Below, one piece after another: positions 10,382 to 41,199 of a stretch of DNA of 64,000 nucleotides. The position numbers and the translations under genes are program-made. Source of the DNA: Candidatus Bipolaricaulota bacterium (GTDB taxonomy: Bacteria; Bipolaricaulota; Bipolaricaulia; UBA7950; UBA9294); contig JAUWGE010000001.1 of assembly GCA_030606565.1 (NCBI GenBank), positions 87,740 through 151,739 of the forward strand, in the 5' to 3' direction. How positions within the stretch are numbered: position 1 is the first letter of the stretch; each line of letters opens with the position of its first letter. Below the pieces are notes generated by a model, which was not told where the DNA came from, searched no databases, and was given only the letters and a program-made list of their open reading frames with translations.

Positions 10382-10597
10382 TTAAGCTGCGTCCCATTTC
10401 TCGTCGCTAATACCTGCCTGCCTAAGAATCTCCTTTAACAAGCTTACGCTGATTTCCCCACTTCCATGTGGATTTGGAATGCGAATTTTGTGCTCTTCTT
10501 TTATCATAAACTGATGTTTACCGCCGGAGAACGGACCTTCGTACCCTAAAGCTTTGAACTTGCGGATCAAGTCTTTGCGTGAAGTGCTGACAAGCAT
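10382..10597 (-). CDS. hicA: HicA-family toxin
   Basis: GGKHQFM, IPNPH, 71 aa, adjacent to hicB. Confidence 0.85.
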   Translation of the reverse strand: MLVSTSRKDLIRKFKALGYEGPFSGGKHQFMIKEEHKIRIPNPHGSGEISVSLLKEILRQAGISDEKWDAA

Positions 10598-10843: not shown

Positions 10844-11143
10844 GATGTGCCTCCCTGCCCACAGCAAGCACGATCAGTATACGAGCCTCTTCGCAAGGGG
10901 GCAAACGCTAACTTCCGCTTCGAAAGTCTTCCATGCCATCGGTCAAGACAAATCTCTGAACGTCGGGGATAAGTCTGTAGCTATCAGCCGTCAGCAATCA
11001 GCTTCAATCCACACGTCGGCTCTCAGCTTTCGTAGCGTCGCAACCTGTGTGCTTGGGGGGTGTAGTAAACAGCTCGTCATGTACTACACTCCCCAGGTTC
11101 TTCGTCAGGGATAAACCCCCAAACAGAAGAAACTCGACGTGCC

Positions 11144-11848: not shown

Positions 11849-11853
11849 CGGTA

Positions 11854-11957
11854 GTAGCGTTGGAGCTTGTCTCCGACGTTGACCGTGTTTTGTCCTCGAC
11901 GTTTCGGCGAAACCCGTGTCCGCCGCAGGGTCCGTCGGACATGAAGTCCGACGCTAC
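11854..11957. repeat. Inverted REP doublet (GTAGCGTYG...CGACG)
   Basis: gtagcgttggagcttgtctccgacg and the reverse copy gtagcgtcggacttcatgtccgacg. Confidence 0.75.
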
Positions 11958-25626: not shown

Positions 25627-26091
25627 ATGGGAAAGACGTTTGAAGGGAAACTCGATGGAAGTGGCCTGCGAGTGGGGATCATAGTCAGCCGGTTCAACGA
25701 CATGATCACCGAGCGGCTCCTTAAAGGAGCGCTTGACAGGCTACGGCGGTCGAACGTGCCGCAGGAGTCAACCGATGTCTGTTGGGTTCCAGGGGCGTTC
25801 GAGGTACCAAAGGCAGCCAAACACATGGCCACAACCGGTCGTTACGATGGAGTTATCGCGCTCGCTGCGGTGATCCGCGGGGCAACCCCGCACTTCGAGT
25901 ACATCTCAAGCGAAGTGATCAAGGGGCTAGCCCGGGTGAATCTGGACGTGGATATTCCCATCGCCTTCGGGGTGATCACCTCTGATACCATTGACCAGGC
26001 CATCGAACGGGCAGGGACGAAGCTCGGGAACAAGGGAGCGCAGGCCGCAGAGACGTTGATCGAAATGGTCAACGTCCTCAAGGAAGTCTAG
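25627..26091 (+). CDS. ribH: 6,7-dimethyl-8-ribityllumazine synthase
   Basis: VPGAFE, IRGATPHFEY, GNKG. Confidence 0.97.
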   Translation: MGKTFEGKLDGSGLRVGIIVSRFNDMITERLLKGALDRLRRSNVPQESTDVCWVPGAFEVPKAAKHMATTGRYDGVIALAAVIRGATPHFEYISSEVIKGLARVNLDVDIPIAFGVITSDTIDQAIERAGTKLGNKGAQAAETLIEMVNVLKEV

Positions 26092-27348
26092 ATGGCTTAC
26101 GAGTCGGTCCGGGGGATGCGCGATATCCTTCCGCAGGACATCGGTTACTGGACCCTTCTTGAGGATAAGGTGCGCGAGATCGCGCGACGTTTCAACTATC
26201 GCGAGATCCGGGTTCCACTTGTTGAACACACCGAGCTCTTCTCCCGCGGGATCGGCGAGGCTACCGATGTCGTCAACAAGGAGATGTACACCTTTCCCGA
26301 CAAGAAGGGGCACAGCTTGACCTTGAGGCCAGAGGCGACCGCCTCGGTCGTCCGCGCCTACGTTGAACACGGCCTCCACACGGTGGAGCCGTTCCAGAAG
26401 CTCTTCTACATCGGGCCGATGTTCCGCTACGAGAAGCCGCAGAAAGGGCGCAGCCGCCAGTTCCACCAATACGGGGTGGAGGCGATCGGCTCGCTCGACC
26501 CAGCCCTCGACGTTGAGGTCATCAACCTCGCCTGGGAGCTGATGGACTCACTCGGCCTCAAAGGCCTCTCGCTGCGATTAAACAGCATCGGCTGTGCGGC
26601 CGACCGAAAGCAATACAGACAGATCCTGCGTGACTACTTCGCCAAGCTGATTGGTACCATGTGCGAGGACTGCCAGCGCCGGTATGAGGAGAATCCGCTT
26701 CGCATCCTCGACTGTAAGAACGATCTATGTCAGCCACATATTAAAGACGCCCCAGGAAGCGCCGATCACCTGTGTAAGAGTTGCGCCGATCACTTTGCTC
26801 AGGTAGAAAACTACCTAAAAGAACTGGGCCTCTCTTACGAGATCGACTCGCGGCTCGTGCGCGGGCTCGACTACTACACGCGTACCGTTTTTGAACTTGT
26901 CTCGGTGGACCTAGGAGCGCAGGACGAGCTCCTCGGTGGTGGCCGCTACGACGGCCTGGTGGAGATGCTCGGCGGACCGCCCACCCCCGGTGTCGGTTTC
27001 GCTGGCGGGATGGAGCGGCTGATCCTCGTCCTTAAGGAGCGGATGGGTTCGCTCGATGATCGCCAGCGACTCGACCTGTTCCTCGCCACCCTGGGCGAAG
27101 AGGGGCGCTCCCTCGCCCTCGATCTCGCAAGAGATCTACGCCGGCAGGGGCTCTCAGTCGACCTTGACTACCGCGGACGGGCCCTACGTAAACAGATGGC
27201 GCAGGCGAACCAACTTGGGGCCCGATACCTCCTCGTCCTCGGAGATGATGAGACCGCCTCCAAGAAAGGGAAGTTAAAGGAGATGGATAGTGGAGGGGAG
27301 ACCGAGGTGATGCTTACCGTAGAAGAGATTGAGCGAGTAATTGAGTGA
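26092..27348 (+). CDS. hisS: Histidine--tRNA ligase
   Basis: LRPEAT, RQFHQ, VRGLDYY, GGGRYD. Confidence 0.97.
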   Translation: MAYESVRGMRDILPQDIGYWTLLEDKVREIARRFNYREIRVPLVEHTELFSRGIGEATDVVNKEMYTFPDKKGHSLTLRPEATASVVRAYVEHGLHTVEPFQKLFYIGPMFRYEKPQKGRSRQFHQYGVEAIGSLDPALDVEVINLAWELMDSLGLKGLSLRLNSIGCAADRKQYRQILRDYFAKLIGTMCEDCQRRYEENPLRILDCKNDLCQPHIKDAPGSADHLCKSCADHFAQVENYLKELGLSYEIDSRLVRGLDYYTRTVFELVSVDLGAQDELLGGGRYDGLVEMLGGPPTPGVGFAGGMERLILVLKERMGSLDDRQRLDLFLATLGEEGRSLALDLARDLRRQGLSVDLDYRGRALRKQMAQANQLGARYLLVLGDDETASKKGKLKEMDSGGETEVMLTVEEIERVIE

Positions 27349-27463
27349 CTTAGAGATTGAGTGAATTGCGAATTGAGTCATTGAGTGATTGAATCATCGG
27401 GGGATTGAATGGTTTAGCAGCTGCAAATCGCTAAGTCATTAAATCACTAAATCGTTCAATTAC
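27325..27463. repeat. Octamer (GATTGAGT-like) inverted array, same family as 1612-1739
   Basis: gattgagt...cattgagt gattgaat ... aatcgcta agtcatta aatcacta aatcgttc. Confidence 0.75.
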
Positions 27464-27477
27464 TTCGGGAGGATCTG

Positions 27478-27960
27478 ATGGAATTGCGAGTCGTTGAAAT
27501 CGAGAACCCGAATGAACTGAACTTCATCCTCGGGCAGACCCACTTCATAAAGACGGTGGAGGACTTACACGAGGTGCTGGTCACATCCCTACCCGGGATC
27601 AAGTTTGGGCTTGCCTTCTGCGAGTCCTCCGGCCCGGCCCTCATCCGCCGCTCCGGGACCGACGAGACACTCGTCAACCTCGCGGTAAAAAACGCTCAAA
27701 GCATCGGCGCTGGGCATACGTTCATCATCTTTTTGGACGGATCGTTCCCGATCAACGTCCTGAACGCGGTGAAGATGATCCCCGAGGTCTGCCACATCTA
27801 CTGTGCTACCGCCAATCCGGTGCAGGTGATCATCGCCGAGACCGAGCAAGGCCGTGGAATCCTCGGCGTCATCGATGGTGTCTCTCCCAAAGGCGTGGAG
27901 ACCGAGGTTGATATCGAAGATCGCAAGAACTTCCTACGCACGATCGGCTACAAGTTGTAG
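27478..27960 (+). CDS. Adenosine-specific kinase family protein (DUF355-like)
   Basis: [42 protein letters not shown] end. Confidence 0.88.
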   Translation: MELRVVEIENPNELNFILGQTHFIKTVEDLHEVLVTSLPGIKFGLAFCESSGPALIRRSGTDETLVNLAVKNAQSIGAGHTFIIFLDGSFPINVLNAVKMIPEVCHIYCATANPVQVIIAETEQGRGILGVIDGVSPKGVETEVDIEDRKNFLRTIGYKL

Positions 27961-27990
27961 AATAGGGTGTCCAGGGAGGTGAATGAGAGC

Positions 27991-28311
27991 ATGCAGGAAG
28001 GCGACTCTGACAGATTGAGTTTCACACTCGAAGATGCTCTGGAGACTCTGCGGGCACAGCTACCTGAGATCAATCAACGTTATGGTGTCAAGTTCTTGGG
28101 TATCTTCGGCTCTTTTGTGCGGGGGGAACAAGAGGGAAGAAGTGACCTGGACATCCTGGTGGAATTCCAATCTTCTCCCACGTTTTTCCGGTTCATCGAG
28201 ATGGAGGATTATCTCAGTCAGCTCCTGGGAGTTAGAGTTGATCTGGTCATGAAGAGTGCGCTGAAGCCGCGCATTGGCAAGCGCGTCCTCTCTGAGGTTG
28301 TGTCAGTATGA
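27991..28311 (+). CDS. MNT-family nucleotidyltransferase antitoxin
   Basis: GIFGSFVRGEQ...SDLDILVEF. Confidence 0.9.
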   Translation: MQEGDSDRLSFTLEDALETLRAQLPEINQRYGVKFLGIFGSFVRGEQEGRSDLDILVEFQSSPTFFRFIEMEDYLSQLLGVRVDLVMKSALKPRIGKRVLSEVVSV

Positions 28312-28676
28312 ACGTTGAGCGCATCTTCGAGGACTACTTGGAAGATATACTTGAATATGCTGAGAAGGCTCACCGCTTCTTGGAGGAAACTCCGACGGTT
28401 GATGACTTACAAAAGGATGAGCGAACTCTACTGGCAGTGGTGCGAGCGTTGGAAGTAATTGGTGAAGCTGCAAAACGCATCCCCAAGGATTTTCGGGATA
28501 GATACCCGCGCATTCCTTGGCGAGGGATGACCGGGATGCGAGACAAGGTGATCCATGAATACTTTGGGGTAGATGCAGCCGTGGTATGGCGAACCGTCAG
28601 GGAGGACCTGCCGCCTCTCCGTGAATCTATCGCCCAAGCCCTGTCCAACCTCAAGATGGAGCAAAGCGATAGCTAA
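28308..28676 (+). CDS. HepT/DUF86 HEPN ribonuclease toxin
   Basis: LEVIGEA, IPWR, MRDKVIHEY (RxxxxH). Confidence 0.9.
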   Translation: MNVERIFEDYLEDILEYAEKAHRFLEETPTVDDLQKDERTLLAVVRALEVIGEAAKRIPKDFRDRYPRIPWRGMTGMRDKVIHEYFGVDAAVVWRTVREDLPPLRESIAQALSNLKMEQSDS

Positions 28677-28689
28677 GCAGAAGCGGGCC

Positions 28690-28943
28690 GCGCTGGGTAC
28701 TTGTTCATCATCTTTTTGGACGGATCGTTCCCGATCAACGTCCTGCCCGCCATCAAGGCCGTCCCTGAGGTCTGCCACATATACTGTGCTACCGCCAATC
28801 CGGTGCAGGTGGTCGTCGCCGAGACCGAGCAGGGCCGCGGGATCCTCGGCATGATCGACGGCATCTCCCCCAAAGGGGTGGAAGAAGACGAAGACATCAA
28901 AAAGCGCAAACAGTTCTTGCGCACGATAGGATATAAGCTGTAG
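28690..28943 (+). pseudogene. Diverged in-frame 3' half of the adenosine-specific kinase gene (copy 2)
   Basis: FIIFLDGSFPINVL...FLRTIGYKL*; 28703-28745 is identical to 27720-27762. Confidence 0.9.
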
Positions 28944-29084
28944 CAACAAGAGTGGTTCGCCGATGGAGAACGTGTCAACCTGTGGAGAATGTGAGAAGGA
29001 AACAAGGCACCGCCGGTGGGTCTTGATCAAGCACAAAAGGCAGGCTTCGGCCCCGAAGCATGCGTTACCAAAAGGAGGTACGCA

Positions 29085-30215
29085 TTGGCTACAGGTGTTT
29101 TTCTCATACGTGATAATGATGAACTGGTTGAGATGACAGAGGAACCGTATGACTCTGAAGATCGTTTACAGGAGTTCCTTGCAAAATACCCTAATCTGCT
29201 TGCTGGTGACCAGGTAGGAAGCGAGCAACCCCGCCGCTGGTTACTGATCACTCGCGAGATGTCACTACCAGATGGTGACAGTTTTGGTGGGCGATGGTCG
29301 GTCGATCACCTCTTTCTAGACCAGGACGGGATTCCAACTCTTATTGAGGTGAAACGTGGTTCAGACACGCGTATTCGCCGGGAGGTTATCGGCCAACTCC
29401 TGGAGTACGCGGCCAACGCGGTAGTCTATTGGCCGGTAGAGAAGATCAGGGATCAGTTCGAAGCTACTTGCGAGCAGGACAAAAGCGAGTCTCAATTGGT
29501 TCTTACCGAGTTCCTTGGGCCAGAGAGAGACACAGACTCGTTTTGGCAACAGGTCAAGACGAACCTTCAAGCGGGTCGATTGCGGCTGATCATCGTTGCC
29601 GATGAGATACCACGTGAGCTCCGGCGCATCATCGAGTTCCTCAACGAGCAGATGGATCCAGCCGATTTTCTAGCTATCGAGATCAAGCAGTACGTGGGAG
29701 CGAAGCTTCGGACCCTTGTGCCTAGAGTTATCGGCATTGCAGAGAAAAAGCGCCCGCCTGTTCGTGAGCATCGATCATGGGACAAGGTGTCGTTCTTTGA
29801 CGAACTACGCAAGAATCACGGGGACAAGATATGTCAGGTGGCAAGGGCCGTTCTCGACTGGTCGGAAGAACACAACCTATCACTATGGTGGGGGAAGGGC
29901 AAGCAAACCGGGTACGTGATTCCCGTCCTCAAGCATGAGGGTAAGGAGTTCAGGTTTTTGTCACTGACCACGGGTGGTCATGTTCAGATTCCGTTTGGCC
30001 AGATCAGTAGTCGCCCACCATTTGACGAAGAAGGGAACCGTACGGAGCTGCTTGTTCAATTGAACACGATATCAGGCGTACAACTGATGAGCGATGCTAT
30101 CCATAAATACCCTACATTTGGCATGGATTTATTGGCAACTGAAGAGGCTCTCGACCGATTCCTAAGGACCATTGATTGGGCAATTGAAACAGCAAAAGCA
30201 GGAAGAACAAGCTGA
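29085..30215 (+). CDS. PD-(D/E)xK nuclease-domain protein (NucS-like N-terminus)
   Basis: SEDRLQ, VDHLFLD..G.PTLIEVKR, QLLEY; TTG start after AGGAGG. Confidence 0.7.
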   Translation: MATGVFLIRDNDELVEMTEEPYDSEDRLQEFLAKYPNLLAGDQVGSEQPRRWLLITREMSLPDGDSFGGRWSVDHLFLDQDGIPTLIEVKRGSDTRIRREVIGQLLEYAANAVVYWPVEKIRDQFEATCEQDKSESQLVLTEFLGPERDTDSFWQQVKTNLQAGRLRLIIVADEIPRELRRIIEFLNEQMDPADFLAIEIKQYVGAKLRTLVPRVIGIAEKKRPPVREHRSWDKVSFFDELRKNHGDKICQVARAVLDWSEEHNLSLWWGKGKQTGYVIPVLKHEGKEFRFLSLTTGGHVQIPFGQISSRPPFDEEGNRTELLVQLNTISGVQLMSDAIHKYPTFGMDLLATEEALDRFLRTIDWAIETAKAGRTS

Positions 30216-30366
30216 GCGTGACCGACAGGTAGCAATGTTAGTAGCGAGGATGCTTGCCGTGACGATGGGGGCAAACCTTGCCTTTTGACATTCTTCCACG
30301 GCCGATTCGCAATATGCGAGCCGCGCTTCGCTGGTCCCACGTTCTGTCCCAGATCGCAGGGTAGGG

Positions 30367-30520
30367 TACCGCCAATCCCGTGCAGGTGATCGTCGCTGAG
30401 ACCGAGCAAGGCCGCGGCATCCTCGGCGTCATTGATGGTGTCTCTCCCAAAGGGATAGAGACCGAAGCCGATGTCACAAAGCGCAAACAGTTCCTGAGAA
30501 CGATTGGGTATAAACTGTAG
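30367..30520 (+). pseudogene. Diverged in-frame 3' third of the adenosine-specific kinase gene (copy 3)
   Basis: Manual translation [50 protein letters not shown]. Confidence 0.9.
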
Positions 30521-30548
30521 ACGCATAGGTTTGTTGGCTGGGCTTCAT

Positions 30549-30779
30549 CTACCCAACCTGCAAGAACTCTTCCAGATTAAGGCCTACATCCTTTGCAACC
30601 TGGCGCAGCAAGACAGGTGAGATGTCTCTGCCTTTGTGGAAAGGTATGGTTGTGCATCTTCCATCCGGATGTCGGAACTGTTTGTGTGACCCCCGTTGAC
30701 GAACCTCGACGAAGCCCAGCTTGAGCAATATTGAGACAACATCCTGCGGTTTCAGAATTGGTGCCTTGCTCATGTTCAA
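30549..30779 (-). CDS. hicA: HicA-family toxin
   Basis: LGFVEVRQRGSHKQFRHPDGR.TTIPFH. Confidence 0.9.
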   Translation of the reverse strand: MNMSKAPILKPQDVVSILLKLGFVEVRQRGSHKQFRHPDGRCTTIPFHKGRDISPVLLRQVAKDVGLNLEEFLQVG

Positions 30780-30985
30780 GCAACCACTACATTTTGTATC
30801 CCAATGAATTCAGTCTCGAGTTTCGGTTCGCCATCCTCGAGGAGCATTGCGATGACTTCTCTAAGATTTGCATTCAATTCGTCGAGAGTCTCTCCTTGCG
30901 AATGGGCCCCAGGAAAACCTGGTACGTATCCAACGTACAAACCCGTTTCAGGGCACCTTTCCACAACTGCTTGATACCTTTTCAT
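30776..30985 (-). CDS. hicB: HicB-family antitoxin (short form)
   Basis: YVGYVPGFPGAHSQGETLDE. Confidence 0.9.
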   Translation of the reverse strand: MKRYQAVVERCPETGLYVGYVPGFPGAHSQGETLDELNANLREVIAMLLEDGEPKLETEFIGIQNVVVA

Positions 30986-31204
30986 CGCGATCAGCCTCCG
31001 GTTTCAGTAAACGGTGCGCCTATTAATAAGTATACAGGAACAGGCGTTCATTGCAGAAAGCGAGAGAATCACGAGAGCTGATTGGGGGTTGAGATCTTTC
31101 GGGGGATTACGAGGATAGTACTTCGCCCTTCGGGTTCTGGCAAACGTGATATTGCTGCCAGCCTTCTGTAGAGCCCTAGGATGCAGCAGACAAAGAAGCC
31201 AAAA

Positions 31205-31418
31205 GACATCTCTGAAAGCGCGCCGTGTCAAGGCGATGTTCCTTGGTTCGCCTCCATGGTGGCCTTTCTGTCATCCTGCATTCGAACCCGGCCTGTAGGA
31301 ATCATCTCTTCGCTGTCCAAGCGGCATAAGGTTGTCCTGGAGACGTGTTGAGCTCCAGCGAAGCGCCGCCCCGGCAGGAAGCGGAGAATTCGGAAATGGA
31401 AATGGGTGATATGTCTCC
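31205..31418. repeat. MITE-like ~210-bp element, copy 1
   Basis: gacatctctgaaagcgcgc...gcataaggttgtcc.ggagacgtg...ggaagcggaga.ttcggaaatgg...gatatgtc shared with 34990. Confidence 0.75.
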
Positions 31419-31885
31419 TGATTTCCCTCGGGCGATTATTTCCCAATTCACTAGTTCGAGAAGCATCCGTTGAATGAGACTGGATAAACGATCTTTGCCG
31501 CATTGTCGCGATGTTTCAAGCCTCATCTGCTCCGAAGGGCGAGTGCAACCGTATTAGGTGTCAAGTGTAGGCCTGAAACTCTGTTCCTTGACCCTCTGTT
31601 CGCTTTGGGCGGGCCGTGGTCGCTGATGGGTGAAGGTGGGCTAGAACTCGGTGCCGATCGCCAGAAGGTCAAAATCTAAGCTTCGACCACAATCAACTCA
31701 AGCGATCCCTTTGATGCGACGAACGCGCAGAGGTTAAGAACACTCCCGGTCTCCGAAGAAGTACACCAGTCTATGTGTGCGTCGCAGCAGGAGATCCGTT
31801 CCCAATGGCAGTTACCCAACAGGGTGGGGTAAGAAACAAAGAAGGGCCGAGCCCATTGAGAGCTCGGCCGCTTCAGGCTGCTTGT

Positions 31886-34534
31886 CTACCTCGTTTCCCA
31901 GTACCCGGTCATGAAGATCATCGCAACGGCTTGCACCTCAGCCGAAGGGGAAGAGCCCAAATACGCCAGGAGAGCGCTGGCCGCACCCTTCATGTCCGGC
32001 GTCACTGACGGATCGGTGCTGGTTGCATAGATTTCCAATTCCCCGAGCATGAAGCCGACATACTGTGCTGGAGGAATTATGTCATACAGGCCCTCGTCTT
32101 TGTACTCAACCCCGCTTCGTCTGCCAAACTCGCGAGCGTACTGCTCAACCCAGGCAGGTCTTGTGCTTGCACCACTTACTACATCGATTGTGGTGCTTAC
32201 TGAGAAATCTTCACCGGAGGCCCACGTTCCTTTCAGCTCCAGCCTTTCCATCCCTAGGGGTTCAGTAATTACGCCTGGAAATTGATACGTTCCAGCTTTG
32301 AAGAATTGTGATATGGCCATGGTGGATCTGCCGTCCGGGGTGTGGTCGATGAGTTCCACTTGGGCGTCCCCGCTGAGAGTGATGGTGATCGTGATTGTCT
32401 CGTCGACCATATAGGTTTGCTTATCCGTCGAGATCGTGGCCTCGAAACGATTGGGAAAATATACGTCCTCGGAAACCACGAGAAAGCTTGTGCTCGTGGA
32501 GGCGATCTCTCCAGTTTCCGATACTGCTTGCAGTTCAAGCCTTTCTGTCCCTGTGGGTTTCACTATGGTCGCGGCGATGGAATGGACGCCAGCGGCTAGG
32601 TGACCTAGTGGCAAGAGCTGGTAGCTGCCATCGGGGAGGAAGTCAACGATCGTGATCTGCGCGGGTTGACTGACAGAAAACGTGATAGTAATACTATCTC
32701 CCACCGTGTACTGACTCTTGTCCGTACCGATCGAAACCCGGAACTCAGATGTAGGTTCTTTAGTCACCGTGGCCGGCGTCTGGAGAGACTCGGTCCAGAG
32801 GGTGCCGATCGTCACACGCACTTTCTTGCTTTTTCCTGCTGGGAAGTTGCGAATCACGAGCCCACCGCCACCTTCCGCCTCGTCCTTCTTTTTGACAGGG
32901 TTATGGCTATTGCTCACTTCGTAGGTTGTCGGTTTCGGAGGCGTGCGCGTGCTTCCCGGCTGATCCTTGCGGATGACCTTGCCGTTCTCGTCCACCACAG
33001 TCACCGGTGCGGGGTCGATGATCTTGAGGGTCTGCTTACCATACTTGTCGATCGAGGCTCCGACAACGACTACGTTGTGTCTATTGACCACGGGATTCCC
33101 GTCCTTGTCACCACGGATCGGTTTGCCCTTCTCGTCGAGTTCCGCAATCTCGAGCGTGATCTCAACGTTGTTTCCGTCCTTTAGAGCTTGGAAGATATCG
33201 TTGAAGCTCGGGTTCTCCTTCGGGGGCGCTGTAGAGATGGAGTATCCACGGGCCTTCTCACTCAGCCACTTGCTCACCCATCCCTTGCCAGCACGAAAAC
33301 CATTATCGTACGTTCCTTTTCCCGAGTCTGTGTTCATCTCTTTTGCGAGTTTCTCTTTTAACCACCTGTTGAACTCATCCGGAGTCTTCCCTTCACCATC
33401 CGGGAGCCTTTTTGTCGTCTCAGATTGGTCCATCAGGTAGCGCAAGGAGTCTGCAGCCGCGGTCGGCACGCACTCGTTCTCACCTTGCACGATATCTGGC
33501 ATCGGCGCATTGATACTTGCAGAGCGCGCTAAGATGTCAGTGATCACTGGCTTTGCTCCAGGGATGGGCGGTGCTGCCTGCGCTGCTGCAGCGTTTCCGG
33601 CCGCTGCTGCAGCTGGTGGTTGTGCTCCGGCCCCTGCTGCAGCTGCTACCGCTGCTGCAGCAGGGGGTCCCGCACGCTTCGTGGTTAGGACGAATGGACT
33701 CCTCGTCGTGGACGGTTGAGGTGGAGGCGGTCCCCCATCCGGCGGTAGGCCATTGTCTGGCGGGCGGCCTCCACGCGGCGGTAAGGCTCCCGACCACCAC
33801 GCAGGTTCTCGCAAGAATGCGGTTCCAGCTGTGTGAGCACAGTGGTCTTCCGTCTCTCCTCGCTCGAATCCGCCGACAGGTCCAGCTCCGTCCCAACCGG
33901 CCTCGCCGTAGAACTCCCAGTTGATCGCCTCGGTGGTCAACGTGGCGCGGGCGCACGGAGAGCTGAGCAGGGCCTGCGTATCGACGAGCGAGAAGGTTGT
34001 GCTCACGATCTGTGTCTGGTCTACAAATAGGATCGGGACGTTTTGCATGATCCACTCGATCTGGGGTTGATCTCCAATGTAGTACGTCCGAAAGACACCA
34101 TCATGGTTGAGATCGGCGGCGACATTCAAATAGCGAATCGTGCTGTCCGTGTCGGTGGTGATCGGAACACAGACCCGGCCAAGGCCGGTGACCACCCCGC
34201 CGACCACGACGCTCTGGATGCTAATCCATCCATCGTCTTCGTCTCGGTCGACAACCTTCGCGTCCCCCTCAAGGGTGGTCGTTGATCTCGGAGAAACCCC
34301 GATCCATTCGTGAGTCACATCCAAGTGGTACGGTCCGGTCATCCCGGTTCTGGCACTGGGGGAGTATCTCAACGTGGGGAATCCGGGATCAGGGAGATCA
34401 CCGAAATCAGCCATCCCGTCCGCACCTGATTGAGCAACGATACCTACGAGAGAAACCCCGACAATGAACAGGGTTAGGATCAATACGCATGGCAGGATTG
34501 CTCCACGCCATCTCACATGCACGAGAACATTCAT
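31886..34534 (-). CDS. Exported multidomain protein: GEVED-like region, Pro/Ala linker, putative papain/C39-like peptidase, two Ig-like repeats
   Basis: N-terminal hydrophobic helix; DFGDLPD...GETEDH; QGENECVPTA...HNVVVVG...IIDP; repeated TDKxxYxVxxxITIT. Confidence 0.65.
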   Translation of the reverse strand: MNVLVHVRWRGAILPCVLILTLFIVGVSLVGIVAQSGADGMADFGDLPDPGFPTLRYSPSARTGMTGPYHLDVTHEWIGVSPRSTTTLEGDAKVVDRDEDDGWISIQSVVVGGVVTGLGRVCVPITTDTDSTIRYLNVAADLNHDGVFRTYYIGDQPQIEWIMQNVPILFVDQTQIVSTTFSLVDTQALLSSPCARATLTTEAINWEFYGEAGWDGAGPVGGFERGETEDHCAHTAGTAFLREPAWWSGALPPRGGRPPDNGLPPDGGPPPPQPSTTRSPFVLTTKRAGPPAAAAVAAAAGAGAQPPAAAAAGNAAAAQAAPPIPGAKPVITDILARSASINAPMPDIVQGENECVPTAAADSLRYLMDQSETTKRLPDGEGKTPDEFNRWLKEKLAKEMNTDSGKGTYDNGFRAGKGWVSKWLSEKARGYSISTAPPKENPSFNDIFQALKDGNNVEITLEIAELDEKGKPIRGDKDGNPVVNRHNVVVVGASIDKYGKQTLKIIDPAPVTVVDENGKVIRKDQPGSTRTPPKPTTYEVSNSHNPVKKKDEAEGGGGLVIRNFPAGKSKKVRVTIGTLWTESLQTPATVTKEPTSEFRVSIGTDKSQYTVGDSITITFSVSQPAQITIVDFLPDGSYQLLPLGHLAAGVHSIAATIVKPTGTERLELQAVSETGEIASTSTSFLVVSEDVYFPNRFEATISTDKQTYMVDETITITITLSGDAQVELIDHTPDGRSTMAISQFFKAGTYQFPGVITEPLGMERLELKGTWASGEDFSVSTTIDVVSGASTRPAWVEQYAREFGRRSGVEYKDEGLYDIIPPAQYVGFMLGELEIYATSTDPSVTPDMKGAASALLAYLGSSPSAEVQAVAMIFMTGYWETR

Positions 34535-34695
34535 AGCTCACCTCCTTGTTAACCTACGGTAGGTGATCCTACAAGACGTGTCAAGCGGGTGAACCAAGAC
34601 ACAGGTTATAACGTAATACGTCTCGAGGAGTAGTTGCGGCCTCACCAGCTAGCGCGCCAGGGCTTCATTCTGTGCTTCTAGAAAGCTTGGCTTAA

Positions 34696-34769
34696 GACGC
34701 CCGAGAGGACTCGAACCTCCGACCTTCGCATCCGGAGTGCGACGCTCTGATCCACTGAGCTACGGGCGC
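34696..34769 (-). tRNA. tRNA-Arg(CCG) with irregular 3' end
   Basis: GCGCCCGTAGCTCAGTGG...TCGCA-CTCCGGA-TGCGA...GGTTCGAGTCC; terminal G-U pair, C discriminator, no CCA. Confidence 0.8.
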
Positions 34770-34774
34770 GTGTC

Positions 34775-34862
34775 TGGCGGAGGGGGCGGGATTTGAACCC
34801 GCAGAGCTTTAGGGCTCGCCGGTTTTCAAGACCGGTGGTTTCGTCCGCTCGCCCACCCCATT
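34775..34862 (-). tRNA. tRNA-Ser(TGA) with first three bases unpaired (possible pseudo-tRNA)
   Basis: CCGGT-CTTGAAA-ACCGG, long variable arm, GGTTCAAATCC, CCCCTCCGCCA; 5' end reads AATGGGG rather than GGAGGGG. Confidence 0.8.
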
Positions 34863-34989
34863 ATCGCAGAAGACAGTAAGATGAGGTTCCTAGAAAAGAG
34901 GAGCAGAAGGCGGTGTAGGGGTAAAACCTTGCCTTTTGACCTCATCGCCTGAGTTGTCATCCAGCGAATTGAGCGCCACAGGACAACTT

Positions 34990-35203
34990 CGGGGACATCT
35001 CTGAAAGCGCGCGCTTTTTCAAGTGAGGCTCTCGGTTCACGTTCACGGTGGCGTTCCTATCATCCTTCCCTTACACCCGGTTTGTCGGAGTCATCTCTTC
35101 GCGATCCACGCAGCATAAGGTTGTCCCGGAGACGTGACGAGATCCAGCGGAGTACCGACCCGGAAGGAAGCGGAGAGTTCGGAAATGGGTGATATGTCCC
35201 CCG
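34990..35203. repeat. MITE-like ~210-bp element, copy 2, with terminal inverted repeats GGGGACAT...ATGTCCCC
   Basis: Seen directly; colinear with copy 1. Confidence 0.75.
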
Positions 35204-35544
35204 ATTCTCCAGTTGTTCTCGTCCACTATTCAGAGCAACCATCCTTTTCAAGATGTGCACCATCCCGACAGACACACTGGATGAAACAGACAACGGGGGC
35301 GGCAGTTCAGAGCCGAGCAGTACCCTGTTACAGGCCTGCGGACCCCACGAGCCACACCCCCGTCAAGTAGACATTCTACTCGACAAAGGCATGCCCGTCA
35401 CCTGTGTAAAATCCAATGGTAGACCCTTTGTGTCTATTCCTCGAGGCTTGTTCTGGTCATCAGGGCCTCCTTGTTTTCGGTAACACACTTTATGAGGCAC
35501 CGATGACCCGCTCGGTAACAAATTCAATGAGGCAATTCGCGGTA

Positions 35545-35573
35545 TTGACAAGAAGCAGTCTATGGAGTATAAA
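35545..35573 (+). promoter_or_regulatory. Sigma70-type promoter
   Basis: TTGACA-N17-TATAAA. Confidence 0.6.
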
Positions 35574-35585
35574 GGAATAGTCGCG

Positions 35586-36050
35586 ATGGATTCTGACTGG
35601 AAGCGGACACTACTGAAGCTGCTGGGCGGGGCTGTATTTGGGGCTGTAGCAACTTTTCTTGCATTGCTAGCTTTTGAATACATCGATGTCAGGGGTCCTG
35701 ACTTGGTGTACGGCGTGTCGCCGTCCGTCACTCTTCAGTGTGAGAAGGAATTCTTCGAGTTCCAGCAGATAATGGTGGCGAATCTAGGCAACGAACTAGA
35801 GTCCGATGTGTATGTGAACCTCAAGATCTCCTCAAGTGACCTGCTGCGCTACGGGTTTACCGGCTTCGGCTCTCCTACCGTGGCGGAAGCCGAGAGCGGT
35901 GAGGCCTCTGCGTCATTTTGCTACAAGACGCTCATCCCCGGAGCTACAGCTTATCTCGTGCTCCAGCTGCGGCATGGAGCCACCATTAGTCCAGCGGACG
36001 TGGAGGTGTATGGTAACTCAGGTTTTGCGCGGGAGAAGACCATTGAATAG
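35586..36050 (+). CDS. Hypothetical membrane-anchored protein
   Basis: N-terminal TM helix then beta-rich domain; downstream of the promoter above. Confidence 0.65.
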   Translation: MDSDWKRTLLKLLGGAVFGAVATFLALLAFEYIDVRGPDLVYGVSPSVTLQCEKEFFEFQQIMVANLGNELESDVYVNLKISSSDLLRYGFTGFGSPTVAEAESGEASASFCYKTLIPGATAYLVLQLRHGATISPADVEVYGNSGFAREKTIE

Positions 36051-36539
36051 ATCGAACTTTGGAACAAGCGTCCAGACCACCCAGTACAAGTGGCACCAAT
36101 TGGCAAAACACTGCAGAGGGTATCTACGGACAACTGAACTGCTGAATTCGCGCACTTCATTACCTACTACGCTCATCAGGCACCGTATCCTTTGCACGCC
36201 ACGTCCGCTTCTGCTATACTCGTAGGCGGAGAACGGAGTTGACAAATCGTGATGAAGCTGATAGAAGTCGAGGTCGCATGCAGCATGCGCAAGAACCAGC
36301 AACAGATGAACTCAGCAAGAAGAGAAAAGGGAGGTGGTCGTGCGCTAAGACTTTCGCCGTAGCGGAATTGACCTGGTTATGATGGAGAGTATGAAGGAGG
36401 AATTCAGATGGAAATGAAAGTCAAGAGGTTTCAAGAATCCCATTGCTTCGAAGCAATGGACTAGATTCATTGTAGACGAGAGGAGTCGACTATTTTCGCG
36501 CAGGTTTTAGCCCCATCTGGGTGCAACGCAAAGGCCGAA

Positions 36540-37523
36540 GTGGTAAAATTCGTAGATCGTGTTTTTCTCTCCTGTATCGCGCAGGTAGGGGAGTTCTTGC
36601 GATCGATTGTCGTACACGTTGACAGCGAGTCGCCTGAACCCTTGTGGGGCTTGGACCTGTTATTGCCTTGTCCATACGAGTGTGTCCGGTCTGTTAAAGA
36701 TGTTTCAGAAACCTGCTTGCTGGACCCTGCCGAGTATCACTTCAATAGTGTGCACACGTTAGGCTATAGAGTGCAGTCAAGACCAGACCCAGGGAACCAA
36801 GCGGGGATAGGAAAGATAGATACTGATGGTTTTGAGAATGTGGAAGTCTACACGGGAAGCGCCATCAGTGTCAATCGTGTGGCGGACTCCACACTTATAC
36901 AGATAAGATTTAAGGATGCACCGATAGAAGCTGGTGCCTTCCGCGAAATCCGGCTTCTTCTCTTGCAGGAAATCCGATCTGAGGAGGTAGCTAGTAGTAG
37001 TCCTGACAAACTTCCGTGGCAGCGAATTGCCCTGCCGTATCTCGAAAAAACACAAACGGCGGACGCACGCGAACTCTTGAGCTCGGATGAAAGAGAACTG
37101 CCAGTTCGTCCGATATGCGACGCTAACTCTCTGCAAGGGGGGTTTGATGTGTTCATCTACCTCCCTCAAGCCTGTGAATACGAGTCGTGGACGACACGGG
37201 GAGTGCGTTTCGACAAATACGGGATAGATGGCAAGGAACATGGCGAGATCTCGCGCAAGCTTCTATGGAGAATGCGTTGGGCCTTGGAAGAAAGTCGCGC
37301 TTGGACGCTTGAGCAGATTGCCGAACGTTCGGTGGACTCACAGGAGGTTGAGTTCACGATTGAGGGGCTACTAAGACCCGGTCCCACTTCTCTGGAAGCA
37401 CAAAAGACTGGGTATGAGCAGGTCAAACGTGGTACACTAGTGATCGGTTGGGTATCCTTTGCCGCGTTGGTTGTTGCGATCCTGGGCTTTGTCCTCATAA
37501 TGATTCTGCTTTTACGGGGTTAG
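36540..37523 (+). CDS. Hypothetical protein with C-terminal TM helix (possible ATT start at 36492)
   Basis: 327-aa ORF with hydrophobic C-terminus; GAGGAG lies 6 nt before the in-frame ATT. Confidence 0.65.
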   Translation: MVKFVDRVFLSCIAQVGEFLRSIVVHVDSESPEPLWGLDLLLPCPYECVRSVKDVSETCLLDPAEYHFNSVHTLGYRVQSRPDPGNQAGIGKIDTDGFENVEVYTGSAISVNRVADSTLIQIRFKDAPIEAGAFREIRLLLLQEIRSEEVASSSPDKLPWQRIALPYLEKTQTADARELLSSDERELPVRPICDANSLQGGFDVFIYLPQACEYESWTTRGVRFDKYGIDGKEHGEISRKLLWRMRWALEESRAWTLEQIAERSVDSQEVEFTIEGLLRPGPTSLEAQKTGYEQVKRGTLVIGWVSFAALVVAILGFVLIMILLLRG

Positions 37524-37580
37524 CCACCCTAGGGTAAACTCGAGAGAAGAACGGAGTTTTAGGCGCTGCGTGCGAATTCC

Positions 37581-37700
37581 GGGGGCATCTCTGAAAGCGC
37601 GCGCCGTGTCAAGACTTTATGTTCCATACTTGCTTTGCTAACATCCTGCCGTCGAACCCGGTCTGTCAGAAGCATCTCTTTGCCGTCTAGGCAGCATAAG
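37581..37700. repeat. MITE-like element, truncated copy 3
   Basis: ggggcatctctgaaagcgcgcgccgtgtcaag...catcctg...tcgaacccgg...catctctt...gcagcataag. Confidence 0.7.
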
Positions 37701-37791
37701 CCGGAATACCACCGGATGCGTGACACGGTCCCATGCGCCTCGCGACACCATTTGCGCCTGCAGCGTTCATGAGCTAAATTAGATTCGACGT

Positions 37792-38796
37792 ATGTCAAGC
37801 CATACACGTGTTCTTAGGAACATCGCGTTCACACTTGTGGGAGCACTGTCCAGTGCCATAGTCGGCCTCTGGATCAAGGCTCCACTGCCACGTGGACTTC
37901 TTCCTCTGTTATTAGTTCTGGTCGTACTCCTGTTGCTTTTTGCGGTTGGCGTGTTCGAGCGAGTACGGACTGTGTGGCAAGTGCGAACTCGCCATGGGTC
38001 CTTCCCCTTCAAAGCTCCCCAGGTTTGCATTCTCAATGATTTGGAGTGGAAACCTGAGGGAGATAGAGTTTCAACAGGCACTGCGGTCAGGCCCAGCCAA
38101 TGGAAGCACATGCTTGAGGAAAAGGCCGCAGAATCCGGTATCAAGGTCAGGGTCAGGCTGGTGAAAGGCAGGAAGAGCCTCCCACGATACTGCCTTGTTG
38201 TCAACCCTTACGGCGGCGTCTATCCCGAAAGCGATCTTGAGAATAGGACGACCCTTCGCACTATCTTCTCTTATGTTGCGGGTGGCGGCTTCTTCCTAAA
38301 TGTTGCTGACATACCAGGATTCTGGGCATACAGCGCGATGCTCCATAGAAGACAGCATGCCACCCCTGCCATCTGGGGTGTGCGTGAAGGTGGCTACACT
38401 GGAATTAGGCCGTTCAAACTCACCCCGTTCATGGCACAGTTGGGTCTCGAAGTTCTCAACAGCGAGGGAACGTCCATGTTCGAGTGGCCAGCAAAGCCCC
38501 ATCAAGAGTGCGCTTCACTAGGTATTCCGGATGACCCGCTCGCTGTGCATCGCGTTGTCAGAGTGGAGCCAAATGTTGTGCCTTTGATCCTTGCTCGTGA
38601 GATTCAAGAGGCGCAAGGCGGATCCGTTGGGGTCACACCTTTCTTCGCGATACCCTACGGCGATGGTGCCTTCATTGTGTCACTTGTGTTCCAGAATCAC
38701 GACCGTGAAACCAATCGCCAAATGAAAGCCGTACTGGCAAATCTGTCAGTCGCCATAGCCTCAAGAGAGCTCCTTGGGTTCTTAACTAGCAACTGA
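37792..38796 (+). CDS. Hypothetical protein with two N-terminal TM helices
   Basis: 334-aa ORF, hydrophobic N-terminus. Confidence 0.7.
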   Translation: MSSHTRVLRNIAFTLVGALSSAIVGLWIKAPLPRGLLPLLLVLVVLLLLFAVGVFERVRTVWQVRTRHGSFPFKAPQVCILNDLEWKPEGDRVSTGTAVRPSQWKHMLEEKAAESGIKVRVRLVKGRKSLPRYCLVVNPYGGVYPESDLENRTTLRTIFSYVAGGGFFLNVADIPGFWAYSAMLHRRQHATPAIWGVREGGYTGIRPFKLTPFMAQLGLEVLNSEGTSMFEWPAKPHQECASLGIPDDPLAVHRVVRVEPNVVPLILAREIQEAQGGSVGVTPFFAIPYGDGAFIVSLVFQNHDRETNRQMKAVLANLSVAIASRELLGFLTSN

Positions 38797-39154
38797 GTGG
38801 CTAGTCGGGTGACACAATAGCGATCTCCTCCTTCAGCGAAGAACAAGCCCCATGCACACCCCACGGAACACCAGCAATCCAGTGCGCCAACACGGGAACG
38901 ACTTAACAGCGCCCTCCTCAATACAGCACGCTGCTGTGGAATAGATAGTTGTTGCGCTCCCGCGGGAGCTGGACGCGGGTGGTTCGCGGATGGCTCGGAA
39001 TCACATCTTGAAATGCAACATCTAAAGACGCTGGTTTCGCGTGTATAGAACGCAAAAGGCCGCGCTGATCTGCCTGTTGTCAACTGGCGCAGATCGTAGG
39101 AAGCAATCAATGCTCGCGAGAAAAGTGCTTGTTGGGGAACGGCCTCAGCCGTTC

Positions 39155-40039
39155 CTAGTCGAAGAGACCGGGTTGCGCGGCACTCGGCACCAGGTACGGC
39201 TTGACAGAGGTTGAGATCCCGTACTTGGCACATAGCTCGTGAAATCGCTTGTAGAGCCCGTCGGCGTTCGGTGACGGGCAGTTGTAGGCCTCGCCGTAGG
39301 TTTCGACGTAGCGCGCCTTCAGCCCGGGAAATAGTTCGTCAAGTTTTTCGTAGAAGTGCGAGCGCTGGCGATCGCGTATGCTCATTCCAAACCACGGGAC
39401 GATCGCTTTCACCCCGCAGCGATGCGCTTCCTCGATGATCCCCATCACGTTCTCCTGTGTGTCTTCGATGAACGGGAGCGTCGGCATGAGGGCGATCCGC
39501 GTCTCAAGACTCGCATCGCAAAGCTCCTTCAACGCCCGGAAGCGCGCCGAGGAAGGGGGAGCTCCCGGCTCGATCTTCTTTGACAACGCGTCGTCGATCG
39601 TCGTGATGGTGAGGGAGACCGCGGCGGTGTGAAACCGGGCGATCTTCTTTAGGATCGGGATGTCACGCAGGACGAGATCGCTCTTGGTGACTACGTGAAC
39701 GCCGAAGCCGCAATCGGCGATCGCCTCAAGCGCCCGGCGAGTCAGTCTTACTTCCTCTTCGAGCGGCATGTAGGCATCGTGCATCGAACCTGTGCCGATG
39801 ATCCCCTTTTTGCGTTTTCGCGAAAGCTCATCACGGAGCAGATCGATCGCGTTTGTCTTTATCAGGACTTCTCCGTCGAAGTCCTCGATCCCGTAGCACA
39901 GACTGCGCGAATCACAGTAGATGCAGTGGTGTTGGCATCCGCGATAGAGGTTCATCCCGTAGTCGAGACCGAAGTAGGTATCGATCCCCGAAACGCGGTT
40001 GATGATCGTCTTGGCACGAATCTCTCGGATCATGTCCAC
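39155..40039 (-). CDS. Radical SAM protein (SPL-like/Rv2578c-like)
   Basis: NLYRGCQHHCIYCD, VTKSDLVLRD, IEPGAP. Confidence 0.88.
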   Translation of the reverse strand: MDMIREIRAKTIINRVSGIDTYFGLDYGMNLYRGCQHHCIYCDSRSLCYGIEDFDGEVLIKTNAIDLLRDELSRKRKKGIIGTGSMHDAYMPLEEEVRLTRRALEAIADCGFGVHVVTKSDLVLRDIPILKKIARFHTAAVSLTITTIDDALSKKIEPGAPPSSARFRALKELCDASLETRIALMPTLPFIEDTQENVMGIIEEAHRCGVKAIVPWFGMSIRDRQRSHFYEKLDELFPGLKARYVETYGEAYNCPSPNADGLYKRFHELCAKYGISTSVKPYLVPSAAQPGLFD

Positions 40040-40192
40040 TTAGTGTACTGTAAGGAGCTCGCGGGATGTTCTTCTTCACGTTCCCCTCGACGCTGATCAT
40101 CGTTCATGTACAAATAGGTGCAAGGATGAACACGACCTTCTTTTTCACTGGATAGCTCTTGTGTTTGGTCTTTGCTCTTAGCAGCTTTTCCC

Positions 40193-40221
40193 TTGACAAC
40201 CCCTTTCTCTGCTCGTATACT
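40193..40221 (+). promoter_or_regulatory. Sigma70-type promoter
   Basis: TTGACA-N17-TATACT. Confidence 0.7.
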
Positions 40222-40374
40222 GCTTACACTTTCTAAACCACCGGTCCCTAAGGACCACCTTTGGGGGTACGATAATGAGGAGTAACGCGCTCTAACTGAA
40301 GTCTGTCGGTCGCGGACGGCTCGTCTTTGATTTGCCGGTTGGTTTTCTCTTTCCCCTACTTTCAAGGAGTTATA

Positions 40375-41199
40375 ATGAGTACCCCTGCACTTGAGCTTAA
40401 TCAGGTATGTAAGGTTTTCACCAAGAAGGAACGCGACAAGACCAAAGCTCGCTTTGCGCCTAAGAAAAGAGAGAAGGTCATCGCTCTTGACGATGTGAGC
40501 CTGTCGGTTAACCGACGGGAGATCTTCGGAGTCCTTGGCCCGAACGGGTCGGGAAAGTCGACCCTGATCCGGCTCCTTTCTACCCTGCTGATCCCCGACA
40601 AGGGGACCATCCGCGTCTTTGGCCATGATGTCGAGAAGGAAGAATTCGCGGTGAAGCGGTTGATCAACCGTGTCTCGGTCGATGCCGCCTTCTTCAAGAA
40701 GTTTTCTCCTTTGGAGAACCTGACCTACGCCGCCCGGCTCTATGGGATGCCAATGCGCGAGGCACGCGAAAAGATGCGACAGATCATGCTTCGTCTAGGT
40801 TTAAAGGAGGAGACGTTCAACCAACCGATGGAGCACATGTCGCGCGGAATGCAGCAGAAGGTCGCTGTGGCGAGGGGGTTTCTTACCTCGCCCACGCTCT
40901 TGTTGTTGGATGAGCCAACAACCGGACTCGATCCACACTCCAAGCGCGACGTTCAAGGCTTTGTACGCCAGATCCGCGCCGAACACGACGCGACGATCCT
41001 CCTCACAACCCACGACATGGAGGAGGCAGATCGGCTGTGCGACCGGATCGCGATAATCGATGAGGGAAAGATCATCGCCCTCGATACGCCAAAGGGGCTA
41101 AAAGAGCTGGTTAGCAAGCGAAACGGGCATGAACCGACCCTCGAGGACGTGTTCATCGAGCTGACGGGAAAGAAGATGGAGGAGAAGGAGGCGGAATGA
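40375..41199 (+). CDS. ABC-2 exporter ATP-binding protein
   Basis: GPNGSGKST, SRGMQQ, LLDEPT. Confidence 0.92.
   Translation: MSTPALELNQVCKVFTKKERDKTKARFAPKKREKVIALDDVSLSVNRREIFGVLGPNGSGKSTLIRLLSTLLIPDKGTIRVFGHDVEKEEFAVKRLINRVSVDAAFFKKFSPLENLTYAARLYGMPMREAREKMRQIMLRLGLKEETFNQPMEHMSRGMQQKVAVARGFLTSPTLLLLDEPTTGLDPHSKRDVQGFVRQIRAEHDATILLTTHDMEEADRLCDRIAIIDEGKIIALDTPKGLKELVSKRNGHEPTLEDVFIELTGKKMEEKEAE

Follow-up and report, generated by a model that had tools for sequence, protein, structure and literature searches.

Introduction

When e14 or phage 21 inserts into icd of Escherichia coli, it brings its own 3′ end of the gene, diverged mostly by synonymous changes; icd is kept intact, and the original end is displaced to the far side of the insert as an in-frame pseudogene. 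Here we describe a comparable arrangement behind a gene of the PF04008 family ("adenosine-specific kinase") in a 64,000-nucleotide (nt) stretch of the genome of a Candidatus Bipolaricaulota bacterium (assembly GCA_030606565.1, contig JAUWGE010000001.1, positions 87,740 to 151,739), hereafter called the window. The intact gene is followed by two 5′-truncated copies of its 3′ part, with cargo genes between and behind them. As with e14 and phage 21, the target gene is restored and direct repeats of its 3′ end flank the inserts. Those, however, are prophages of tens of kilobases with an integrase of their own and one fixed crossover core, whereas the units here measure 0.7–1.5 kb, no integrase was found in or beside them, and nine boundaries occur in the one gene. 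The phenomenon is wider than the original locus, involving several genes and occurring across the bacterial family.

Other known systems share parts of this arrangement. Integrons hold ordered small cassettes, often toxin-antitoxin modules, separated by a recombination repeat beside a fixed platform. The array likewise has ordered small, often toxin-antitoxin cassettes between repeats, but the integron integrase IntI was not found in the genome that holds the window (only four C-terminal fragments of the PF00589 family, on other contigs), no attI or attC site was found either, although no attC model was run, the repeat is the 3′ end of a coding gene, the cassettes lie in mixed orientation, and there are many platforms in the one genome. 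In the orphan modules of Rhs and contact-dependent inhibition (CDI) systems, too, displaced 3′ fragments lie behind a full gene, a small partner gene accompanies each of them, and recombination in the conserved part of the gene builds the structure. In those systems it is the variable, toxic tip that is displaced and an immunity gene that accompanies it, whereas here the repeat is the conserved end of the PF04008 enzyme and the cargo is unrelated to that enzyme. Homology-facilitated illegitimate recombination and Campbell-type insertion-duplication are related processes.

In the accretion of streptococcal cis-mobilizable elements (CIME) and integrative and conjugative elements (ICE), newcomers push older elements into the island, and partial target copies, degenerate elements, and fragmented integrases accumulate, much as gene ends do here. 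Such elements mainly enter tRNA genes, at attachment sites that are short and fixed, and when intact they encode tyrosine recombinases. The parts of the tycheposon report on which we draw describe the same features for islands of Prochlorococcus, where tandem accretion takes place at tRNA genes (bioRxiv 10.1101/2020.12.28.424599). Compared with tycheposons as described there, the array uses the ends of protein-coding genes, has variable boundaries, and contained no intact element that we could find. In flexible genomic islands, finally, homologous recombination within conserved flanks renews the gene content (PMC4033161). The likeness lies in a conserved flank beside a hypervariable neighbor and in breakpoints inside the flanking gene; island renewal of this kind, however, is not known to leave serial truncated copies of the flank gene.

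Many hotspots of gene transfer in bacteria lack a recognizable mobile element, and how genes enter there is an open question. The arrays preserve a readable record of successive insertions.

Genomes and sequence data

The genome holding the window (G000) is a 63-contig assembly, 91% complete. It was compared with sets of 74 genomes of its family and 184 of its class, in which the PF04008 gene was matched in 63 and 127 genomes, respectively; 64 of the gene-bearing genomes belong to the other families of the class. G001 is a sister species of G000; G082 and G083 belong to another genus. Two wider sets contained the 80 named public loci best matching the gene (66–76% amino-acid identity) and 80 metagenome loci; close relatives were not among them. 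Logan contigs, which are public per-run assemblies, were used for coverage and junction checks in runs X1 to X7. The ESM Atlas is a protein-cluster library in which neighbors are feature-based.

Organization of the array

The array and its left neighbor have the following layout.

26092..27348, + strand: hisS (Pfam PF13393/PF03129), conserved left neighbor of the PF04008 gene
27478..27960, + strand: intact PF04008 gene, 160 amino acids, the anchor of the array (Pfam E 1.3e-76, profile positions 1–154)
27967..28311, + strand: MNT-type nucleotidyltransferase (PF01909, E 6.4e-14)
28308..28676, + strand: HepT-type HEPN RNase (PF01934, E 1.5e-29)
28690..28943, + strand: copy 2, gene nt 230–483, 254 nt, 5′-truncated (blastn 81.5% identity to the full gene, junction alignment, Pfam)
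28701..28943: open reading frame (ORF) over copy 2 (PF04008, E 9.8e-38, profile positions 76–154)
28944..29007, + strand: 64-nt tail behind copy 2 (blastn of the window against G001)
29016..30215, + strand: cargo ORF of 399 amino acids, candidate defence protein (PADLOC PDC-S11, E 3.3e-13; no Pfam match)
30367..30520, + strand: copy 3, gene nt 330–483, 154 nt, 5′-truncated (blastn 81.8% identity to the full gene, junction alignment, Pfam)
30380..30520: ORF over copy 3 (PF04008, E 5.2e-18, profile positions 110–154)
30549..30779, − strand: HicA toxin (PF07927, E 2.7e-20)
30776..30985, − strand: HicB antitoxin (PF15919, E 3.6e-6; PF21748, E 2.1e-6)

A first-pass annotation made from the DNA letters alone had listed the full gene, MNT/HepT, two 3′ copies, and hicBA, and all of these parts were recovered by Pfam profiles and DNA homology. 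It had also noted that the three C-termini are stop-free and share the end FLRTIGYKL*, which is correct, and that positions 27720–27762 equal 28703–28745, an identity of 43 nt that proved exact. The three PF04008 sequences are the only ones in the G000 assembly. They differ in a variable stretch (VETEVDIEDRKN / VEEDEDIKKRKQ / a third 12-residue variant), and the remainder is conserved. The 5′ boundaries of copies 2 and 3 are sharp: gene-like similarity upstream of them was within chance (95 of 300 and 191 of 300 shuffles, respectively, reached the score), and no extension of homology was found upstream of either copy or behind hicB. The TAA stop of HepT (28674–28703 region) is in frame with copy 2, 13 nt before the start of homology, which would happen by chance in one case out of three.

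The gene hisS lies upstream of the PF04008 gene in the array contigs of all seven relatives scanned, G001, G022, G033, G031, and G010 included. G001 is collinear with window positions 25684–29007 at 90.6% identity and different thereafter. The 64-nt tail behind copy 2 also stands behind both truncated copies of G001, and past it the two species diverge.

Integrity of the assembly and variants in populations

A strain-chimeric misassembly of the metagenome bin might have made the repeats. The assembly is fragmented into 63 contigs and is 91% complete, and repeats that are 150–250 nt long and 81% identical are places at which short-read graphs break, as the Logan contigs indeed do. Nevertheless, contigs bridging the junctions were found in four public runs from four studies. 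Single contigs of run X1, with 0–1 differences from the window, joined copy 2 to the 399-amino-acid gene (28821–30204) and that gene to copy 3 and hicAB (30175–31479). In runs of three other studies, contigs linked the gene end by way of MNT/HepT with copy 2. A contig of run X7 ran from the gene end through MNT and HepT to the start of copy 2 (27889–28714), and one of run X6 from HepT to copy 2 (28373–28910). Because contigs of four runs bridge the junctions, we conclude that the array is not a misassembly. In addition, the first unit is shared by the sister species G001, whose genome was assembled independently, and the pattern is present in seven other genomes. The misassembly explanation is thus largely refuted and is almost certainly wrong.

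The contigs also contained population variants. In X3, X6, and X7, which come from three other studies and where contigs were 98–99% identical to the window, the depth of the 399-amino-acid cassette was 8–22, compared with 45–250 for MNT/HepT and hicAB; in these three other samples the gene is therefore held by a minority of the population. Hybrid contigs joined the full gene to copy 3 (27907 to 30479), copy 2 to copy 3 (28780 to 30371), and the full gene to copy 2 (27903 to 28887), and resemble variants without the cassette or from before its insertion. Because their matching sides are only 23–30 nt long at 90% likeness, we treat these joints as hints.

Window positions 31616–33000, in the region that encodes an 882-amino-acid DUF4384 protein, had zero cover at 90% likeness or above in X3, X6, and X7, all of which hold the flanking hicAB region.

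Cargo genes

The probable true start of MNT, as read from the sequence, is the ATG at 27991. MNT scored 44.9 bits against the NCBIfam MntA model, under the cut-off of 60, and HepT likewise scored under the curated cut-off of its NCBIfam model; MNT matched PADLOC PDC-S09 with E 3.5e-28. MNT/HepT and HicAB are predicted, as adjacent genes of partner families, to be type VII and type II toxin-antitoxin modules, respectively, with MNT as the antitoxin and HepT as the toxin of the former. The 399-amino-acid ORF had been labeled a PD-(D/E)xK nuclease in the first-pass annotation. It gave no match to Pfam, and its PADLOC match is to PDC-S11; one feature-based neighbor cluster in the ESM Atlas carries NucS_C in 15% of its members, and the nuclease identity is a guess. 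Cargo orientation is mixed across the arrays, with several cassettes inverted relative to the anchor gene.

MNT is also exchanged on its own, apart from HepT: the likeness to G082 and G083 breaks off at the MNT/HepT junction (about 28310), and in G083 MNT is followed by a PIN gene instead. Two contig joints of low depth (2–4) that go back were seen at 28309–28310.

Divergence of the copies and exchange of gene ends

If a truncated copy had decayed freely since the species split, its ratio of nonsynonymous to synonymous divergence (dN/dS) would be about 1. The ratio for truncated copies against the resident full gene was 0.07–0.48 (in the window, copy 2 gave 0.25 and copy 3 gave 0.16), and orthologue pairs over the same codons gave 0.05–0.35; most of the differences among the copies are synonymous. 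For the orthologous copies 2 of G000 and G001, dN/dS was 0.17 at a dS of 0.60, and we therefore conclude that the copies were either functional alleles on arrival or repeatedly overwritten from functional genes. The copies in the window differ from one another by a dS of 0.55–0.73, more than the 0.44 that separates the full genes of G000 and G001.

The copies are also mosaic. They contain exact tracts of 43 nt and 30 nt within sequences about 81% identical overall. The 43-nt tract does not reflect simple conservation, because orthologues are 73% identical to the window there and 71% over the whole gene. Between G000 and G001, segments at nt 283–301 are reciprocally swapped between the full gene and copy 2, and the copy of G022 is identical to its own full gene over about nt 290–455 (about 165 nt) and diverged on both sides. 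The nearest relatives of truncated copies are the resident gene or those of congeners; in G075 and G083 a copy is nearer to the gene of another species than to the resident gene. Such gene conversion between resident copies is another origin of the allele-like differences.

A gene end and the cargo behind it have moved recently between diverged genomes, as seen in the profile of differences between the window and G001.

27886..28671, + strand: recently exchanged patch, consisting of the last ~75 nt of the PF04008 gene, MNT, and HepT

Over this patch G000 and G001 differ at 7 of 786 nt (99.1% identity), and the flanks are 80–92% identical. Against G082 and G083, whose hisS is 70–74% identical to that of the window, the last ~50 nt of the gene and MNT are 95–96% identical, and this similarity ends at the MNT/HepT junction. 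The steps in identity are sharp (27886 and 28672 against G001; about 27911 against G082 and G083). The left breakpoints thus lie at about gene nt 409 and 434 and the right ones at the HepT stop and the MNT/HepT junction; the moved patches are 0.4–0.8 kb long, and their breakpoints vary by pair and differ from the truncation point at nt 230. The unit of 3′ end plus MNT sits on the full gene in G000 and G082, and on a truncated copy behind a ParE/Phd cassette in G083. Because of these patches of 95–99% identity among diverged genomes, we conclude that the gene end and the cargo behind it travel together.

Recurrence of the array in the family

Downstream of the PF04008 gene, 5′-truncated copies were present in eight of the 63 gene-bearing genomes of the family (G000, G001, G010, G022, G031, G033, G075, and G083); the other 55 had no spare copy. 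In the other families of the class, 64 genomes bear the gene, and none of them showed a truncated copy downstream of a full gene; extra partial matches there were pieces at contig edges (G160, G175, G168, and G107) or a gene split over two contigs (G157). Each of the two wider sets had extra matches at one locus (L106 of the named public loci and L184 of the metagenome loci).

Comparison across genomes, which the first-pass annotation had proposed, showed that both the cargo and the number of copies vary among the eight array-bearing genomes. Nine truncation points were found in the 483-nt gene, at nt 164, 226, 230, 296, 303, 330, 345, 364, and 408, and alignments of the PF04008, LeuD-like, and other-gene arrays (see below) revealed no shared boundary motif by eye. 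Seven of 12 copies are stop-free; copy 3 of G001 and the copies of G031, G010, and G075 are frameshifted, contain stops, or are very short. The cargo between copies comprises MNT/HepT (G000, G001, and G010), HicB with an adjacent small ORF (G022), MazF with an RHH protein (G033), ParE/Phd (G083), the PDC-S11-like gene (G000), and ORFs without a family match (G075 and G001). In G031, the stretches from gene to remnant are 2.6 and 4.0 kb long and carry CorA, a mechanosensitive channel, ZIP, phosphofructokinase, catalase, and DUF454 genes. The downstream neighborhood as a whole is hypervariable, with 175 ORFs from 58 genomes falling into more than 100 clusters, whereas hisS and the PF04008 gene are conserved.

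The same architecture at other genes

Comparison of G000 with itself revealed a diverged copy of the 3′ end 0.5–11 kb behind five other housekeeping genes, with accessory genes between. These copies are mostly in frame and show conservative changes. The repeated stretch measures 144 nt for the GlnS/GltX-type aminoacyl-tRNA synthetase, where it lies 4.1 kb downstream beyond two NTPase genes; 123 nt for the LeuD-like aconitase small subunit, where a DUF4258 cassette intervenes; 78 nt for UvrC; 90 nt for flavodoxin, where the cargo is AbiEi/AbiEii; and 198 nt for an ATP-citrate-lyase-like gene, where an 11-kb sugar island intervenes. The five loci (L092–L097) are as follows.

C11:12837-18835
C15:8728-9895
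C17:12101-14980
C25:15336-28878
C44:9269-12109

Mirror-image pairs, in which the 5′ end of a gene is repeated, gave 9 rows in G000 against 11 rows of the 3′-end kind (naive ORF calls). At one further locus (L086, C49:13404-19052), the 5′ end of a PD-(D/E)xK-family gene occurs twice upstream of it, with AbiE, GmrSD-like, and MNT genes between.

The LeuD-like gene was surveyed in 66 family genomes. Truncated 3′ copies were on the contig of the full-length or longest copy in at least nine of them (G000, G001, G009, G018, G022, G023, G068, G081, and G083), and 3′ pieces were on other contigs in G032 and G088. The arrays (loci L258–L265) have up to four copies, and no integrase was present among their 76 ORFs. 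All cargo with a family match was toxin-antitoxin or defence-like, and the G009 stretch additionally contained glycosyltransferase and ABC-transporter genes. Two truncation points recur across three genera, each with the same cassette (DUF4258/DUF2283 or MNT/HEPN). Because the recurring points keep the same adjoining cargo end, we conclude that cargo and boundary were inherited as one unit. The last copy retains a common promoter-like downstream flank, as a model in which older ends are pushed downstream expects.

A six-copy repeat array on C31 was considered as a second case and rejected, since its repeat is a miniature inverted-repeat transposable element (MITE) with terminal inverted repeats. 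In this locus (L085, G000:C31:12500-29500), the six copies of ~240 nt lie at 1984–15103 among toxin-antitoxin cassettes (MazE/PIN, RHH/PIN, and HTH-M78).

Recombinase and recombination genes

The first-pass annotation had seen no integrase near the array, and profile scans agreed. No integrase, resolvase, or transposase family was matched in the 48 window ORFs of at least 110 amino acids, in the smaller ORFs of positions 31004–40626, or in the arrays of seven relatives, and none of the family's matches to the tyrosine-recombinase profile PF00589 lay on the eight array contigs. In G000, PF00589 matched only four short C-terminal fragments (profile positions 118–171), all on other contigs (C27:112744-112899, C11:10668-10769, C9:154-231, and C15:53053-53139). 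PF00239 and PF02899 had zero matches in G000, and no full-length tyrosine recombinase was found in this 91%-complete assembly. RecA, ComEC, and DprA are present. MutS was found and the MutL domain was not; at 91% completeness this says nothing firm about relaxed mismatch repair.

How the arrays may arise

The anatomy of the arrays, their recurrence, the variable boundaries, the mosaic copies, the recent transfer of patches, and the presence or absence of a cassette within populations are the observations that an explanation has to accommodate. We favor, with about even confidence, the reading that RecA-type homologous recombination adds, swaps, and removes units of gene 3′ end plus cargo, with the repeated gene ends acting as portable homology arms. 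The array would then be the left border of a flexible island, at which small addictive or defensive cassettes are gained along with a replacement copy of the 3′ part of the anchor gene. The gene would stay intact, and each earlier 3′ end would be left downstream as a promoterless, 5′-truncated remnant. Joining would be carried out by the general RecA-type recombination of the cell within the conserved 3′ part of the gene and would involve no dedicated integrase. One rare illegitimate join, arising by homology-facilitated illegitimate recombination or by Campbell-type insertion of a circularized fragment, would found each new truncation point. Once between two gene-end copies, a cassette could enter a relative that lacks it through a normal double crossover; crossovers between the repeats would cause its loss or exchange, and the copies could convert one another. 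Toxin-antitoxin cargo might persist because repeat-mediated loss would kill the cell. To our knowledge, models of island renewal do not give a repeated gene end the role of a portable arm, and a full-text literature search by word matching, which is a weak check, returned no account of gene 3′ ends arrayed without an integrase.

Homologous recombination fits better than a dedicated recombinase because there are many boundaries, many target genes, and no integrase, and because breakpoints vary, copies are mosaic, mirror-image 5′ cases exist, and RecA, ComEC, and DprA are present. An origin by reverse transcription, which would yield 5′-truncated cDNA, was rejected, since several cassettes point the opposite way to the anchor gene.

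Several points weigh against the homologous-recombination reading. Its steps are all ones that we infer; no donor genome, circular form, or microhomology at an illegitimate join was seen. The patch shared by G000 and G001 ends at the HepT stop and not within copy 2, as in plain allelic replacement, and so does not by itself demonstrate transfer by homology arms. The hybrid joints, with their short matching sides, may stem from other organisms. Boundaries 226/230 and 330/345 lie close together despite different cargo, and the recurrent LeuD-like truncation points are as compatible with a fixed attachment site as with an inherited unit. The LeuD-like DUF4258 cassette and the core gene have diverged to the same degree, and the unit therefore looks old and not recently mobile. 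Cassette ends are tight, with the HepT stop 13 nt before copy 2 and a DUF2283 stop ~9 nt before a LeuD-like copy, which defined element ends predict and random fragment ends do not. Finally, most relatives have one or two full tyrosine recombinases and some have more. With an assembly that is 91% complete, an integrase elsewhere in the G000 cell is possible.

The tight cassette ends, the LeuD-like truncation points that recur across genera, and the full tyrosine recombinases of most relatives also speak for the main alternative, that site-specific elements insert serially at the gene 3′ end, each carrying its own version of it, as phage 21 and e14 do in icd and tandem elements do at tRNA genes, with integrases that act in trans or have since been deleted, so that cargo and remnants of attachment sites are all that is left. 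So do the restored gene with direct repeats of its 3′ end around each unit and the four scattered integrase fragments in G000, which recall the "fragmented integrases and partial tRNAs" in the parts of the tycheposon report cited above. We nevertheless consider this alternative unlikely, although it deserves to be taken seriously: one gene has nine truncation points, none of the eight PF04008 arrays or the LeuD-like arrays has a recombinase in or beside it, the cargo between the window copies is only 0.7–1.5 kb, no common boundary motif is visible, and the moved patches of 0.4–0.8 kb have breakpoints at nt 409 and 434, away from an expected attachment core at nt 230. Much less probable is that the 3′ ends were duplicated in place without import and kept alike by concerted evolution, the cargo having come separately. 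Conversion tracts exist, the nearest relative of a truncated copy is usually the resident gene or that of a congener, and the LeuD-like DUF4258 unit looks old; but the unit of 3′ end and MNT is 95–99% identical where core genes are 70–92% identical, so that import does happen, the window copies exceed in dS the full genes of two species, the copies of G075 and G083 are nearer to the gene of another species, and duplication does not put different cargo between each pair of copies. Slightly more doubtful still is that the truncated copies are silent cassettes which vary the C-terminal segment of the enzyme by gene conversion, with the cargo incidental. A variable stretch in otherwise conserved copies, segments moved between full and truncated copies, the contig that joins the full gene to a copy-2-type end, and the stop-free state of 7 of the 12 copies would suit it. 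The same architecture, however, occurs at unrelated aminoacyl-tRNA synthetase, UvrC, and LeuD-like genes, where programmed variation would be senseless; 55 of the 63 family genomes have no spare copy, and the copies of G031, G010, and G075 and copy 3 of G001 are damaged or very short.

What the first-pass annotation had proposed is supported in part. Its serial accretion of units of 3′ end and cargo, each pushing older ends downstream, is largely right, being supported by the nearly identical patches of 3′ end and MNT and by the flank of the last LeuD-like copy. The nine truncation points agree with its view that there is no fixed attachment site, and the reciprocal segments of G000 and G001 and the joint from full gene to copy 2 agree with swapping of the C-terminal segment. 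That the three ends are alleles from different lineages holds in part: they look like functional alleles, but the donors appear to be close relatives, and conversion between resident copies contributes. The comparison with an integron is loose, and a single hotspot is not what we found, since at least five other genes of G000 and the LeuD-like gene across the family have the same architecture, with cargo in mixed orientation.

It is tempting, although our confidence in it is well short of even, to see the repeated 3′ ends of housekeeping genes in this uncultured lineage as the mobility device itself. A cassette bracketed by them might be inserted in any relative by RecA alone and guarded against loss by addiction, which would amount to an integrase-free equivalent of the integron that is spread over many genes and reshuffles the C-termini of core enzymes. 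With gene-end repeats as homology arms and toxin-antitoxin cargo as a ratchet, host recombination would suffice, and this route is testable. For annotation, an in-frame gene-end fragment that follows a housekeeping gene is the mark of an earlier insertion, and a core gene can differ in history between its C-terminal part and the remainder.

Other features of the window

A dispersed repeat of ~150–220 nt occurs in the window at 31218–31424, 34990–35209, and 37574–37698 and on at least seven other contigs of G000; one window copy is beside tRNA-Ser/tRNA-Arg (34696–34862). The copy at 31218–31424 was considered as a specific part of the array, as the repeat abuts a truncated kinase-gene copy in G001, and was rejected since it is dispersed genome-wide. 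An Rfam scan of positions 27000–40000 gave only two tRNAs and a sub-threshold match to isrG. At 11954–15331 on the − strand, the window encodes an anaerobic ribonucleotide reductase, NrdD, with an intein that contains a LAGLIDADG domain (Pfam Intein_splicing and LAGLIDADG_3).

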